Positions 1 to 4,820 of a stretch of DNA of 4,820 nt are shown in pieces; position 1 is the first letter of the stretch, and each line of letters starts with the position of its first letter. The notes under the pieces were generated by a model. That model did not search any database. It had not been told where the DNA came from and saw only the letters and a list, made by a program, of their open reading frames with translations. Location: IMG/VR virus record IMGVR_UViG_2690316148_000012. One strand, given 5' to 3'. Origin of the DNA: a virus (lineage: Duplodnaviria > Heunggongvirae > Uroviricota > Caudoviricetes). The translations under genes and the position numbers were made by a program.

Positions 1-155
1 CCTCAAAAACACCATCATACACTAAATCAGTAAGTTGGCAGCATCACCGAAGTGGTAAAGAAGATAATAAAGAATAATATTTAGGGTTATAGGTCTTAGC
101 CCATTTTAAATGGAAGGCAGACATGCAGCCATGCATACTTCGCATGGCAACATAA

Positions 156-584
156 TTATTTAGACAAACTATCTAATTTTTGCGTCGCTTTTTGTGTTAG
201 GTCGCTGTAACTGATAAACCCTACGTTAGCACCTACAATTAACACTAAGAACACTAAGCTGCATATGGATAGAGTGGCAGATTTATGCTTATGGAAAACA
301 AAATATGCTACTATTGCACTTAATATGAAGGAAATGAATAGAAATATAGATGTTGATGTTTTTAGATATTTTTCAGGAAATAATGGGTGAGCAATAATGT
401 ATACAAGATTAAGTAGTATATAAATTGCTACCGGAATGAAAATCATGCTCCAGTGTGTATCTTTTTTGGGAGGGATTGGCTGCAAATAATCAGACACCGT
501 TTTTCCATCAGTTTCAAGAAGAATTACTAGATCTCTTACTTCACCACTGACTTGAGTGCCATCCTTAGTAGTAATGTTAATCAT
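156..584 (-). CDS. hypothetical small membrane protein, 142 aa; ~45-aa hydrophilic N-terminal domain followed by three predicted transmembrane helices; second gene of the two-gene operon
   Basis: Part of ORF track 156..641 (-). Start placed at the internal ATG 584..582 (MINITTKDG...), which has a GGAGGG Shine-Dalgarno 5 nt upstream (minus-strand TATTTGGAGGGAAAAAATG) and overlaps the upstream stop as ATGA. Three hydrophobic stretches: SMIFIPVAIYILLNLVYIIAHPLF, SIFLFISFILSAIVAYFVF, LSICSLVFLVLIVGANVGFISY. Basic loop HKHK between helices 2 and 3. Confidence 0.6.
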   Translation of the reverse strand: MINITTKDGTQVSGEVRDLVILLETDGKTVSDYLQPIPPKKDTHWSMIFIPVAIYILLNLVYIIAHPLFPEKYLKTSTSIFLFISFILSAIVAYFVFHKHKSATLSICSLVFLVLIVGANVGFISYSDLTQKATQKLDSLSK

Positions 585-958
585 TTTTTCCCTCCAAATA
601 CGATGCCCTCTACGTCTTTGGAAGCTTTTTGTGATGACCACTCCTCTGAATCAGGTGATTTAATTAAAAATATTGTATCTCCATCAAAAATCGTATTTGT
701 TCCGTAAAAATTCACATTTGATAGATCACCACCAAAAACCCTCTGCCCACTCGAGGTAATTGCCTCACCTAATTTAGTAAAATTACCAGCAATAGATGAT
801 TTTCTTTTTCCACTTCTATTCAAAGTGGCTTTAATTACACCACCACCATCCTTAGAGTTAAATAATTGAATGTCCACTCCAGCAGTTGGTTGTATATATT
901 TTGAAAGCTCTTTCTTGAACTTGTTAATATATTTATCTTTGTTTTCTTTGTTGGTCAT
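581..958 (-). CDS. hypothetical protein, 125 aa, soluble, Lys-rich N-terminus and Gly-rich body; first gene of an AT-rich two-gene operon; family not recognised
   Basis: ORF track 581..958 (-). Starts MTNKENKDKY at ATG 958..956 with no obvious Shine-Dalgarno. Ends GGKK*, and its TGA (583..581) overlaps the ATG (584..582) of the next gene. No hydrophobic segment or signal peptide by eye. Hand-counted G+C is far lower than in the neighbouring nin genes. Confidence 0.6.
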   Translation of the reverse strand: MTNKENKDKYINKFKKELSKYIQPTAGVDIQLFNSKDGGGVIKATLNRSGKRKSSIAGNFTKLGEAITSSGQRVFGGDLSNVNFYGTNTIFDGDTIFLIKSPDSEEWSSQKASKDVEGIVFGGKK

Positions 959-1130
959 TGGTTAGATCCATAGTTCTGGCTGTGATTAGGTGAAAGTATA
1001 CAAGGTTTTTAAAGCGAAGATCACTGTTTTGGCTTCAAGATAGTTTTGATTTATCGTAATCAATCCGCCATAATCCTCTCATCGGAGCCTGAACAACTCC
1101 GGTGACTTCTGCGCATTTAAGGGGACTTAA

Positions 1131-1226
1131 ATGCGACCACAATCTGAACTCATCACCTTGTCACAGATGCAGAAATGCACCTGCGATTTTCTGCATTCTG
1201 CGGTTTCCGTTAGGGAGGCCGTATGA
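1131..1226 (+). CDS. small ORF, 31 aa (MRPQSELITLSQMQKCTCDFLHSAVSVREAV), possibly the ylcH-like small protein found upstream of ybcN in DLP12-type prophages
   Basis: Hand translation, too short for the ORF track. An in-frame TAA sits immediately upstream (1128-1130). AAGGGG lies 6 nt before the ATG. Its stop TGA (1224-1226) overlaps the ybcN ATG (1223-1225). Identity with ylcH is from memory of gene order and approximate size only. Confidence 0.35.
   Translation: MRPQSELITLSQMQKCTCDFLHSAVSVREAV
1167..1196. repeat. inverted repeat ATGCAGAAA-N12-TTTCTGCAT (9-bp perfect arms) inside the small ORF just upstream of ybcN; possible operator or weak terminator/attenuator
   Basis: Arms at 1167-1175 and 1188-1196 pair perfectly. 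Followed by TCTGCGGTTTCCGTT, only moderately T-rich. Confidence 0.3.
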
Positions 1227-1678
1227 CTCTGCCAGTAGACGGCATCAAACTCCATCGCGGTAACTTCGCGGCCATCGGCCAGCAGATTCAGCCATTGCTG
1301 GATGCCGGGCAATGCTTACGCCTGCAGGTTAAGCCGTGGCGCGAGAAGCGCAGCCTGTCGCAGAACGCGCTCAGCCACATGTGGTACACGGAGATCAGCG
1401 AATATCTCATCGCCCGCGGCAAGACCTTCGCTACGCCTGAGTGGGTCAAAGACGCGATGAAGCACACCTATCTCGGCTACGAAAGCAAAGACCGTGTAGA
1501 TGTCGTGTCCGGCGAGGTCACCACCGTCCAATCCCTCCGCCATACGTCAGAGCTGGAAACCGGCGAGATGTACATCTTCCTGTGCAAAGTCGAAGCCTGG
1601 GCGATGAATATCGGCTGCCACCTGACAATTCCGCAGAGCTGTGAATACCAGCAGCTGCGCGATAAGCAGGAGGCGTAA
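1223..1678 (+). CDS. ybcN: YbcN-family prophage protein (DLP12 nin region; reported DNA base-flipping protein), 151 aa
   Basis: ORF track 1223..1678. Protein MTLPVDGIKLHRGNFAAIG...QLRDKQEA matches my recollection of E. coli YbcN in length and sequence. AGGGAGG Shine-Dalgarno at 1212-1218. Followed by ninE, ybcO and rusA in the canonical order. Confidence 0.85.
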   Translation: MTLPVDGIKLHRGNFAAIGQQIQPLLDAGQCLRLQVKPWREKRSLSQNALSHMWYTEISEYLIARGKTFATPEWVKDAMKHTYLGYESKDRVDVVSGEVTTVQSLRHTSELETGEMYIFLCKVEAWAMNIGCHLTIPQSCEYQQLRDKQEA

Positions 1679-2712: not shown

Positions 2713-3096
2713 ATGCGTGATATTCAGATGGTTCTTGAGCGTTGGGGAGCGTGGGCGGCTAATAATCATGAAGATGTGACCTGGTCGTCCATTGCCGCCG
2801 GTTTTAAGGGATTAATTACTTCAAAAGTAAAATCTCGCCCGCAATGTTGTGACGATGACGCGATGATTATTTGCGGGTGCATGGCCCGTCTGAAAAAGAA
2901 CAACAGCGATTTGCACGATTTATTAGTAGATTATTATGTAGTCGGTATGACATTCATGTCACTGGCAGGTAAGCATTGCTGCTCTGATGGTTATATCGGG
3001 AAAAGGTTACAGAAGGCTGAGGGCATAATTGAAGGGATGTTAATGGCATTAGATATCCGGTTAGAGATGGATATCGTTGTTAATAACTCTAATTAA
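2713..3096 (+). CDS. quuD: Q-family late-gene antitermination protein, 127 aa
   Basis: ORF track 2698..3096, which begins at a TTG. I prefer ATG 2713 ([22 protein letters not shown]...), which has GGAG at 2702-2705 with 7-nt spacing. Cys-rich ([19 protein letters not shown]), consistent with a Zn-binding Q antiterminator. Located just upstream of a hairpin/terminator region, as expected for Q. Confidence 0.8.
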
Positions 3097-3235: not shown

Positions 3236-3274
3236 ATATGTTGGGGAGGCAAAGCCTCCCGCAACATATCTTTT
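3236..3274 (+). terminator. candidate rho-independent terminator downstream of quuD (tR'-like): ~15-bp stem with one bulge, AAA loop, then TTTT
   Basis: ATATGTTGGGGAGGC (3236-3250), loop AAA, then GCCTCCCGCAACATAT (3254-3269) with a bulged G at 3261, followed by CTTTTAG (T-tract 3271-3274). A second hairpin sits immediately upstream (AAGTGGCT 3214-3221 / AGCCACTT 3228-3235). Confidence 0.45.
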
Positions 3275-3284
3275 AGTAATCAAA

Positions 3285-4367
3285 TTAGAACTGGTAAACC
3301 ATACCTACAGCAACGATATCATCGGTAGCAACGCCAGATGCTTTCGTGAAATCGCTCTTATCAATCAGGTTGATTTTGTAATCAACAAAAGTGGACATAT
3401 TTTTGTTGAAGTAATAGGTTGCACCTACATCAATATATTCAACCAGGTCCTGATCACCCCACGCACCCAAGTCTTTTCCTTTAGATTGCAGGTAAGCAAC
3501 GGACGGACGCAGACCGAAGTCGAACTGATATTGTGCAACTACTTCGAAGTTTTGTGCTTTGTTGGCAATATGGTTATTACCAAAAACAGTCATGTTCTGG
3601 GTTTCAGAATAGGTGGTAGCCAGATAGATGTTGTTCGCATCATATTTCAGACCAGCTGCCCATACTTCAGCATTTTGACCAGATGCATTCAGGCTGTTGT
3701 TACCGTAGATAACCTGATTATTAGTGCGGTCAGATTTAGCATAGGTTGCACCTACACCGAATCCTTCATACTCATAAGTAGTGGAGAAACCGAAACCATC
3801 ACCATTAGCTTCAGTTACGTCAGTGCGGTCATTTTTACCCTGATACTGAGCAGCAAAGTTCAGACCATCAACCAGACCAAAGAAGTCGTTGTTACGATAA
3901 GTTGCAACACCAGTGGTGCGACCAGTCATGAACACATCTGTTTGAGTCCAAGTGTCACCACCGAATTCTGGCAGGACGTCAGTCCACGCACCGATGTCGT
4001 ATGCTACACCGTAGTTACGGCCGTAATCGATGGAGCCGTAGTCACCGAATTTCAGGCCAGCGAAGGCAAGACGGGTTTTATCTTTGGAGGAACCTTGAGA
4101 TTCAGCGCGGTTGCCTTTGAATTCATATTCCCACTGACCGAAACCAGTCAGTTGATCGTTGATTTGGGTTTCACCTTTGAAGCCAAGACGGGCATAAGTA
4201 GTATCACCATCATCTGCATCATTAGAGGAGAAGTAGTGCTTAGCATTAACTTTCCCGTACAGATCCAGCTTGTTACTGTCTTTATTATAAATTTCAGCTG
4301 CCTGAGCAGACATCGCCATCAGTACTGATGCAGCTACAGCAGAAATTGCCACTGTTAATTTTTTCAT
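3285..4367 (-). CDS. nmpC: general diffusion porin of the OmpC/OmpF/PhoE family (nmpC-type prophage-borne porin), precursor ~360 aa with an N-terminal signal peptide
   Basis: ORF track 3285..4427 (-). Start placed at the internal ATG 4367..4365 ([29 protein letters not shown]...), a typical signal peptide with an AQA-A cleavage site. Mature N-terminus [16 protein letters not shown] is porin-like. The C-terminus ends ...VGMVYQF, with the terminal Phe characteristic of outer-membrane beta-barrels. Convergent position after quuD fits DLP12. Confidence 0.8.
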
Positions 4368-4571: not shown

Positions 4572-4690
4572 NNNNNNNNNNNNNNNNNNNNNNNNNNNNN
4601 NNNNNNNNNNNNNNNNNNNNNNNNNNNNNNNNNNNNNNNNNNNNNNNNNNNNNNNNNNNNNNNNNNNNNNNNNNNNNNNNNNNNNNNNNN
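4572..4690. other. run of 119 N (masked or unresolved sequence) in the AT-rich region upstream of the porin gene
   Basis: Literal n characters in the input. The two ORF-track entries spanning it (4460..4744 + and 4528..4755 -) are artefacts of translating N as X. Confidence 0.99.
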
Positions 4691-4820
4691 TTATTTGTTG
4701 GGATTTGCTTATGTATTTGTAGTGGTGTTTTCAATACTCGGTAGCATTCTCGCAAATATCATTTAGTGGTTTACGTACGTAAAAAATTGGGGTAATGACT
4801 CCAACTTATTGATAGTGTTT

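Follow-up and report, generated by a model that had tools for sequence, protein, structure and literature searches.

An AT-rich antisense gene pair at a probable mosaic junction of a DLP12-type lambdoid prophage fragment

The locus

The stretch of DNA analysed here (the window) comprises 4,820 nucleotides of the Caudoviricetes record IMGVR_UViG_2690316148_000012 and is, by its gene content and family matches, a fragment of a DLP12-type lambdoid prophage. Towards its left end two AT-rich genes, called A and B below, are encoded on the minus strand and diverge from the leader of the nin-region operon, of which ybcN is the first long gene. A preliminary description had placed a sharp compositional boundary between these two units, within 959-1130. 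We argue that the boundary is very probably a mosaic junction of the prophage, at the right-hand edge of a two-gene cassette. The features concerned are the following.

49..77, plus strand: remnant of the 3' end of replication gene P, with its last nine codons and TAA (75-77); 24% G+C; read-through of the ancestral stop
78..155, no strand: convergent spacer between P and gene B; fold z-scores of -2.2 and -2.9 on the two strands
584..156, minus strand: gene B, 142 amino acids (aa)
958..581, minus strand: gene A, 125 aa; its TGA stop overlaps the ATG of gene B (ATGA)
959..1044, minus strand: upstream region of the cassette, with a probable promoter and no homology to other lambdoid phages
1045..1130, plus strand: conserved nin-region leader, from a seven-phage alignment, a promoter scan and a fold z-score of -3.7
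1131-1226, plus strand: small open reading frame (ORF) of the ylcH/orf33 type, 31 aa; its stop overlaps the ybcN start (ATGA)
1223-1678, plus strand: ybcN
1188..1650, plus strand: replaced segment with a GC-rich ybcN allele of the CobraSix type, from a second junction (J2) at about 1188 to the return of similarity at about 1650

Base composition

The G+C contents of single 60-nt lines reported in the preliminary description are correct (30% for 61-120, 25% for 301-360 and 58.3% for 1261-1320). By feature, the values are 33.6% in gene B (156-584), 34.1% in gene A (581-958), 37.2% in 959-1044, 44.2% in 1045-1130, 49% in the ylcH-like small ORF (1131-1226) and 57.7% in ybcN (1223-1678). At third codon positions, G+C content is 26-28% in both cassette genes versus 77% in ybcN. 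A two-segment likelihood scan over 49-2627 has its optimum at 1064 (2-log-unit support, 1051-1086). The gain in log-likelihood is 43.9; 2000 full shuffles reached at most 11.0, and 2000 shuffles of 60-nt blocks at most 25.2. The change therefore lies inside 959-1130, as had been proposed, and is far beyond chance.

The jump in composition is real, but it is not a single sharp step. G+C content rises as a staircase, from 34.4% (49-1044) through 45.5% (1045-1187) to 57.2% (1188-1650), and then settles at 51.2% (1651-2627). The low G+C content does not extend over the whole prophage either: in the intact prophage of E. coli 536 (locus L003) gene P has 55-60% and the nin genes about 50%, and the cassette is an island of 34%. 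The window is compositionally patchy elsewhere, with 43% in quuD, 44% in the porin gene and 29% in the region upstream of the porin gene.

A low G+C content could also stem from the encoded products (a membrane protein and a small protein rich in Lys, Asn and Ile) or from local selection, in an operon that is ancestral at this position; gene B is indeed rich in Ile, Phe and Leu. Against this explanation, third-position G+C is as low as 26-28%, which indicates that the bias of the cassette is not driven by amino acids.

The right junction and the conserved leader

The right edge of the AT-rich antisense cassette, junction J1, lies at 1044/1045. The window was compared with 50,697 phage records and 5426 complete E. 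coli genomes, and all matches except 46 cassette carriers align solely rightwards from 1044/1045 (or from 1087/1100). In a seven-way alignment of the window with E. coli 536, phage 82, HK639, CobraSix, phi80 and a DLP12-type prophage, the sequences to the left of J1 are unrelated, and to its right stands a conserved leader that begins TTTGAT. A leader-ybcN query starting at 1045 matches 3026 of the 5426 E. coli genomes; among the matches listed, most alignments begin at the first base of this query. The divergent intergenic region of about 170 nt recognized earlier does hold the boundary, but consists of two units, one belonging to the cassette (959-1044) and the other to the nin leader (1045-1130).

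The leader contains a promoter-like site, TTGATT (1046-1051) and CATAAT (1069-1074) separated by a 17-nt spacer, which is invariant in the seven phages, and inverted repeats at 1046-1063, 1079-1105 and 1112-1135. At the homologous positions, the phage 82 record X92588 carries annotations of a putative -35, a -10 and a 'possible regulator-binding site'. According to published work, adequate expression of the ybcN-rusA operon of DLP12 requires an upstream insertion that supplies a promoter (PMC4118853), so that the promoter-like site of the leader is at best weak. The ylcH-like small ORF has annotated homologues in phage 82 (orf33), E. coli 536 and the DLP12-type prophage. Its start codon (1131) lies within a perfect 10-bp hairpin at 1112-1135 (GCGCATTTAAG...CTTAAATGCG), which is conserved in most of the aligned lambdoid leaders. 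From the position of the hairpin, entry into the nin operon may be controlled at the level of translation or transcription.

The left junction

The left edge of the cassette, at about 49, falls on the stop codon that replication gene P had ancestrally. The P genes of phi80 and HK639 end ...GGGATGGTGTGA (...AACGGGATGGTGTGA) with a TGA stop. An alignment of P gene ends shows that the cassette lineage has CGA at this place, followed by AGTGGTAAAGAAGATAATAAAGAATAA, and that the homology of other P alleles ends at the same point. Past the CGA, the P frame continues for nine codons (AGT GGT AAA GAA GAT AAT AAA GAA TAA). P has, in cassette-bearing prophages, a C-terminal extension of nine residues (RSGKEDNKE), because the ancestral TGA is now CGA and the frame enters the cassette.

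Position 49 of the window is the G of this CGA codon. Consequently, the end of a copy of insertion sequence IS1, which occupies 1-48 of the window, adjoins the left junction exactly. The preliminary description had called for alignment to other prophages in order to define the endpoints of the insert, and such alignments place them at about 49 and at 1044/1045, a span of about 996 bp. No direct or inverted repeats pair the two cassette junctions. Cargo carried by a transposon or IS element was considered and rejected, as the cassette ends have neither terminal inverted repeats nor a target-site duplication.

Distribution of the cassette

The cassette is present in 46 of the 5426 complete E. 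coli genomes, always as a single copy, at least 99% identical and located between P and ylcH-ybcN. It is absent from 2980 of the 3026 genomes that have the adjacent leader-ybcN module. The slot is otherwise occupied by different cargo: ren, emrE, ylcJ and ybcK in the DLP12-type prophage of strain 158274-3, ren-like, eae-like and theta genes in HK639 and CobraSix, and a gene similar to N15 gp45 in phi80. The independent acquisition of the left operon, as first suggested, is borne out by these counts (46 versus 3026 of 5426 genomes), by the other cargo in the slot and by the start of homology at 1044/1045.

Diverged copies of the cassette, with 67-92% protein identity, are found in Klebsiella and Enterobacter prophages. 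They always lie antisense between the replication and nin/Q modules, and their neighbours differ (DnaB- or DnaC-type replication genes, DUF1367, NinB, DinI). The cassette DNA has no match among the phage records, distant mode included. Since A and B belong to PHROG families (see below), the phage members of these families must be diverged.

All cassette copies have 31-37% G+C, with 25-34% at third positions, and their flanks have 51-55%. Between the genes of the window and the diverged copies, the ratio of nonsynonymous to synonymous substitution rates (dN/dS) is 0.07-0.09 for gene B and 0.07-0.11 for gene A, and synonymous sites are near or at saturation. A and B are, to judge from these ratios, real genes under strong purifying selection. 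Because G+C content is 31-37% in spite of saturated synonymous divergence, the AT-richness is maintained and is not the fading mark of a recent import. The horizontal acquisition that had been read from the AT-richness stands in so far as the cassette is a separate unit of exchange; it does not describe a fresh import awaiting amelioration.

The same stability, in all variants, speaks for the explanation by which the operon is ancestral and its composition set by its products or by selection. That explanation is nevertheless improbable, given that the cassette is missing from the great majority of genomes having the adjacent module, that homology to other phages ends exactly at both cassette edges and that the same cassette stands beside unrelated replication and nin genes in other genera.

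Some genomes have an inactivated cassette. IS1 disrupts gene A in strain CV839-06 (see below), and gene B has single-base deletions at nt 25 in one copy (L018) and at nt 118, in an A-run, in another (L025); the two deletions could be assembly errors, for example at homopolymers. In a Klebsiella-type prophage (L013 2665-4348), the A-B cassette shares the replication-nin slot with an adjacent gene pair that has weak Pfam matches to a colicin pore-forming domain and a colicin immunity protein, and a DndB-like gene lies nearby. Where lambda has rexAB, between kil/cIII and the repressor, intact relatives of the prophage contain another AT-rich island, with about 35% G+C; it encodes an ASCH-domain protein and a 353-aa protein in E. 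coli 536 (L003 3000-4750), and DUF4411 and an ImmA/IrrE peptidase in strain CV839-06 (L001 926-2574).

The second junction and the ybcN allele

Compared with the prophage of E. coli 536, the window is 100% identical over 48-1187, about 77% identical over 1188-1650 and 96-99% identical thereafter. Its identity to Enterobacter phage CobraSix is 92-98% over 1100-1650. The ybcN allele of the window has 57.5% G+C versus 50-51% in the 536, K-12-type and phi80 alleles, and the cassette is linked to at least two ybcN alleles. These comparisons indicate that a second exchange, at J2, imported a ybcN of the Enterobacter-phage type and exaggerated the G+C step. On the same grounds, the contrast between 34% and 58% is read as the sum of two mosaic junctions, J1 and J2: the AT-rich cassette on one side and the separately imported GC-rich allele on the other, with a conserved linker of 143 nt between them.

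The step might even be due mainly to this GC-rich allele and not to the AT-rich operon, in view of the breaks in identity at 1188 and 1650 and of the difference between 57.5% and 50-51%. This is quite unlikely. The allele accounts for only about 7 of the roughly 23 percentage points, the cassette would still be an island of 34% against about 50% if it adjoined an ordinary allele, and the likelihood change point lies at 1064, not at 1188. The GC-rich ybcN allele is a contributing factor, not an alternative.

The ybcN product matches NCBIfam PRK09741 (2.5e-78) and phrog_72 (8e-51) and reaches 24.0 bits with Pfam NinB (cut-off 23.8). These profile matches, together with the position of the gene upstream of ninE ... 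rusA, identify its predicted product as a recombination mediator of the Orf/NinB family, in the PRK09741 subgroup. The relationship of YbcN to this family has been described (PMC4118853).

IS1 ends and the prophage remnant

The remaining features of the window are given below.

1..48, minus strand: terminal 48 nt of IS1, the end upstream of the transposase gene; its outer end (48) adjoins the cassette
After ybcN, in order: the nin-region genes ninE, ybcO, rusA, ylcG and quuD (2713-3096)
4367..3285, minus strand: porin gene of the ompC/nmpC type

In reverse complement, stretches 1-48 and 4791-4820 match the two ends of an annotated IS1A exactly, the first of them corresponding to L001 6776-6823 at one end of that element. 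The two IS1 termini have the same orientation, and the 1-48 stretch has a median of 10 matching places per E. coli genome. A piece of 4.7 kb with the cassette, the nin genes, quuD and the porin gene is in this way bracketed by direct IS1 copies, an arrangement resembling a composite element. The window is 100% identical to the 4.54-Mb chromosome CP029794.1 (locus L023), except for a run of N at 4572-4690. Past the left IS1, L023 has host genes for sugar utilization (lacY/csc-like) and no phage genes. Sequence sources label the proteins as hypothetical proteins of Shigella sonnei or E. coli.

With IS1 at both ends and host genes beyond the left copy, the locus is a remnant and not the intact prophage of a lysogen, as which it had been treated. 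It is bounded by IS1, is of the Shigella type and has lost P, O and the repressor region. The gene pair is very common in sequenced Shigella and E. coli: an assembly collection lists the exact protein A in 12,488 blocks. In 6298 of these blocks the longest contig carrying it measures just 2-5 kb, in keeping with breakage of short-read contigs at IS1.

The same-orientation IS1 ends that flank the window, the left one exactly at the cassette junction, raise the question of whether IS1 made the boundary, by bringing in the AT-rich segment through transposition or as part of a composite element. IS1 is also found within gene A in strain CV839-06 (L001 6776-7543, at about window 813-822). Against such an origin, the 1044/1045 junction and the order P-cassette-ybcN are identical in prophages free of IS1, such as that of E. 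coli 536. We regard it as very improbable; the identical arrangement indicates that IS1 came later and removed the left arm.

Two further observations concern the right part of the window. The run of 119 N (4572-4690) lies in the AT-rich region upstream of the porin gene, at a place where L023 has 86 nt (TATTAACGGCTGTTATTTATAAGTGCTC...). Over 3250-3750, the porin gene shows patches of 76-87% identity to its E. coli 536 counterpart, the prophage being otherwise 96-99% identical; this divergence probably reflects surface-loop variation or another exchange. An Rfam scan of the whole window gave nothing at E up to 1.

Candidate promoter, hairpins and H-NS

The -10 element TATACT noted earlier on the minus strand is present at 995-1000, 36 nt upstream of the ATG of gene A. 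Its best -35 is GTGATC, with 3/6 matches and an 18-nt spacer. The absence of a convincing sigma-70 promoter, also noted at first, agrees with a consensus scan, which calls none for the operon strand in 959-1044. Conservation of the element in diverged cassettes nonetheless favours it: GTATACTTTC is conserved in two of them (L030 and L028), whose flanks diverge, and in a second type of upstream region the corresponding position is taken by TGaTATAGT, an extended -10, or by TATAAT. The position of the -10 (TATACT, TATAGT or TATAAT) is kept in all cassette variants. This conservation supports, but does not prove, the assignment of TATACT as the -10 of a promoter belonging to the cassette.

Downstream of gene B, in the spacer towards P, a terminator scan finds a terminator-like hairpin on the plus strand at 84-102, followed by ATTTT, and a 7-bp hairpin lies at 128-148. 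On the minus strand these hairpins have no T-tract.

The cassette has 65.6% A+T over its 996 bp, well above the host average. The high-affinity H-NS motif TCGATAAATT, with up to 2 mismatches, occurs 7 times versus 7.0 expected. Navarre and colleagues reportedly described in 2006 the silencing by H-NS of AT-rich horizontally acquired DNA. Xenogeneic silencing of such DNA by H-NS is documented (Lucchini 2006, PMC1550270), and from its composition the cassette is, as first suggested, a plausible H-NS target.

Genes A and B

Over their full lengths, gene A belongs to phrog_18061 (9.3e-85) and gene B to phrog_16940 (1.9e-95), two unnamed families. Close relatives at 90% identity form 13 clusters for A, which are enterobacterial, and 17 for B, all from Enterobacteriaceae. 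An exhaustive profile search gives a wider A family of 111 representatives at 50% identity, nearly all of 120-135 aa with full-length matches, and a profile built from distant members extends it to at least 362 clusters. The members of the A family have no Pfam domain, with the exception of one HNH fusion. PADLOC, run on 89 of them, yields single-member matches only, and at least the strongest of these is due to the HNH fusion.

Three similarities were discarded. A 1251-aa 'hit' of the A family is a cadherin-repeat protein and spurious; the best match in the PDB sequence searches, to Spc97 (E 9e-4 over 52 residues), was judged spurious as well; and the Pfam 7TMR-DISM match of B (21 bits versus a cut-off of 29) was put down to similarity of hydrophobic helices.

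The model of B predicts three long hydrophobic helices (44-68, 71-100 and 103-141) after a short soluble N-terminal part. A is soluble and B is a small polytopic membrane protein, and the two genes are translationally coupled. The same organization recurs in distant bacteria: in Thiohalobacter, Cryomorphaceae, Myxococcales, 'Ca. Aadella', Limnobacter and a metagenome scaffold, the gene downstream of the A homologue overlaps it, and in Acinetobacter this gene is adjacent without overlap. The products of these second genes have about 125 aa and, in the sequences read, a short soluble N-terminus followed by hydrophobic helices. One such distant partner matches the B profile with an hhalign probability of 89% (E 2e-6). 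The distant A-B pairs lie in variable accessory regions, next to genes such as those for a YjhX toxin, Cas6/Csf5 with an integrase, an Xre-MbcA/ParS antitoxin and a restriction-like protein.

The pairing of A and B across distant bacteria points to a stand-alone two-component module with a membrane effector. The likeliest single role for the pair, though somewhat short of probable, is that of a prophage-borne exclusion, abortive-infection or toxin-type module acting at the membrane, A being the cytoplasmic partner and B the effector. A broader proposal is more speculative still, and we think it unlikely: A-B would be an undescribed anti-phage or toxin-type module found across phyla, from enterobacterial lambdoid prophages to Acinetobacter, Limnobacter, Thiohalobacter, Bacteroidota and Myxococcota, with an A of about 125 aa representing a new fold family and a B of about 125-142 aa. 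The AT-richness would then be selected as a means of keeping a potentially toxic module under H-NS-type silencing and at low expression.

Origin of the boundary

Taken together, the data make a mosaic junction of a DLP12-type lambdoid prophage the highly likely explanation of the compositional boundary. A cassette of about 1 kb and 34% G+C occupies the variable slot between P and the nin region, antisense to the early-right operon of the phage, and on its right adjoins a leader of about 140 nt that stands before ylcH-ybcN in many lambdoid phages. It would have moved between phages by recombination at the conserved flanks, not by transposition. Homology-driven exchange of lambdoid phages with defective prophages, including DLP12, is on record (PMC3945230). 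For transcription the cassette would rely on a sigma-70 promoter of its own, made up of the TATACT -10 and the poor -35; because of the latter, expression would be low or would depend on an activator or on relief of silencing. A second exchange, from about 1188, swapped ybcN for the allele with 57.5% G+C. IS1 arrived later, at the left junction, and removed the left arm of the prophage.

A number of results weigh against this account or parts of it. An empty site, with this P allele joined straight to the leader, was not found among the matches listed; the event may have replaced cargo that was there before. AT-richness maintained over so long could reflect selection instead of foreign origin. 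The -35 is poor, and the scan called no promoter in 959-1044. The high-affinity H-NS motif is not enriched in the cassette, and no data on expression, transcription starts or H-NS binding at the locus were found in the literature searched. A and B have no match above cut-off in Pfam or NCBIfam, and none in PADLOC (PADLOC-DB v2) at E up to 1. Searches of PDB sequences with A alone and with a profile of 89 members gave nothing credible. The AlphaFold models have low confidence (predicted local distance difference test, pLDDT, of 58.5 for A and 67.7 for B), and Foldseek found no match to PDB or BFVD at E <= 1e-3. The surroundings of the distant homologues resemble defence or mobile-element contexts only loosely. 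Neither the DefensePredictor supplements nor the other literature searched contained the RefSeq accessions of A and B.

The mosaic reading maps the edges of an exchangeable cassette to the base, at the P stop on the left and at 1044/1045 on the right. The conserved nin leader would act as a recombination linker, and part of the height of the step is owed to the second swap of alleles. The cargo is more interesting than the boundary, as A and B form a tightly conserved and strongly constrained pair that is unannotated in every library. If A-B turns out to act in defence or as a toxin, the accessory repertoire of prophages would gain another small system, and the pair would lend itself to studying why such cargo stays AT-rich.

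Comparison with known systems

In lambda, the slot between P and ninB is occupied by ren, and in DLP12 of K-12 by ren-emrE-ybcK-ybcL-ybcM before ylcH-ybcN. The cassette lies in the same position; unlike these genes, it is antisense and AT-rich, and it is unrelated to them in sequence.

Morons were reportedly described by Hendrix and colleagues, in HK97 and HK022, as accessory transcription units inserted between conserved genes; bor and lom of lambda are examples. The cassette resembles them as a small autonomous unit of composition unlike its flanks, set between two conserved phage modules and present or absent at the same position among relatives. It also has a promoter-like element and downstream hairpins, and its orientation would permit expression independent of the lytic operons. 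It differs from them in that no clean insertion site is seen: no relative was found with the flanking genes directly adjacent, and the slot is always filled in the relatives examined.

With DNA silenced by H-NS, the cassette shares a length of about 1 kb at 65% A+T in a host of about 50% G+C, and a weak -35. It differs in lacking enrichment of the high-affinity motif.

RexA-RexB of lambda and other two-gene exclusion or abortive-infection systems of prophages offer a further parallel. As in these systems, a soluble protein is followed by a small polytopic membrane protein of about 140 aa in one prophage-borne operon placed in an accessory slot, and the A-B pairing is conserved in distant bacteria. 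A is far smaller than RexA and neither protein shows similarity to PADLOC models. The parallel is one of architecture only.

In the light of these systems, the boundary itself is an ordinary, textbook case of lambdoid mosaicism, and the moron-like type of cassette is well known. Only the cargo, uncharacterized and conserved across phyla, has some potential for novelty.

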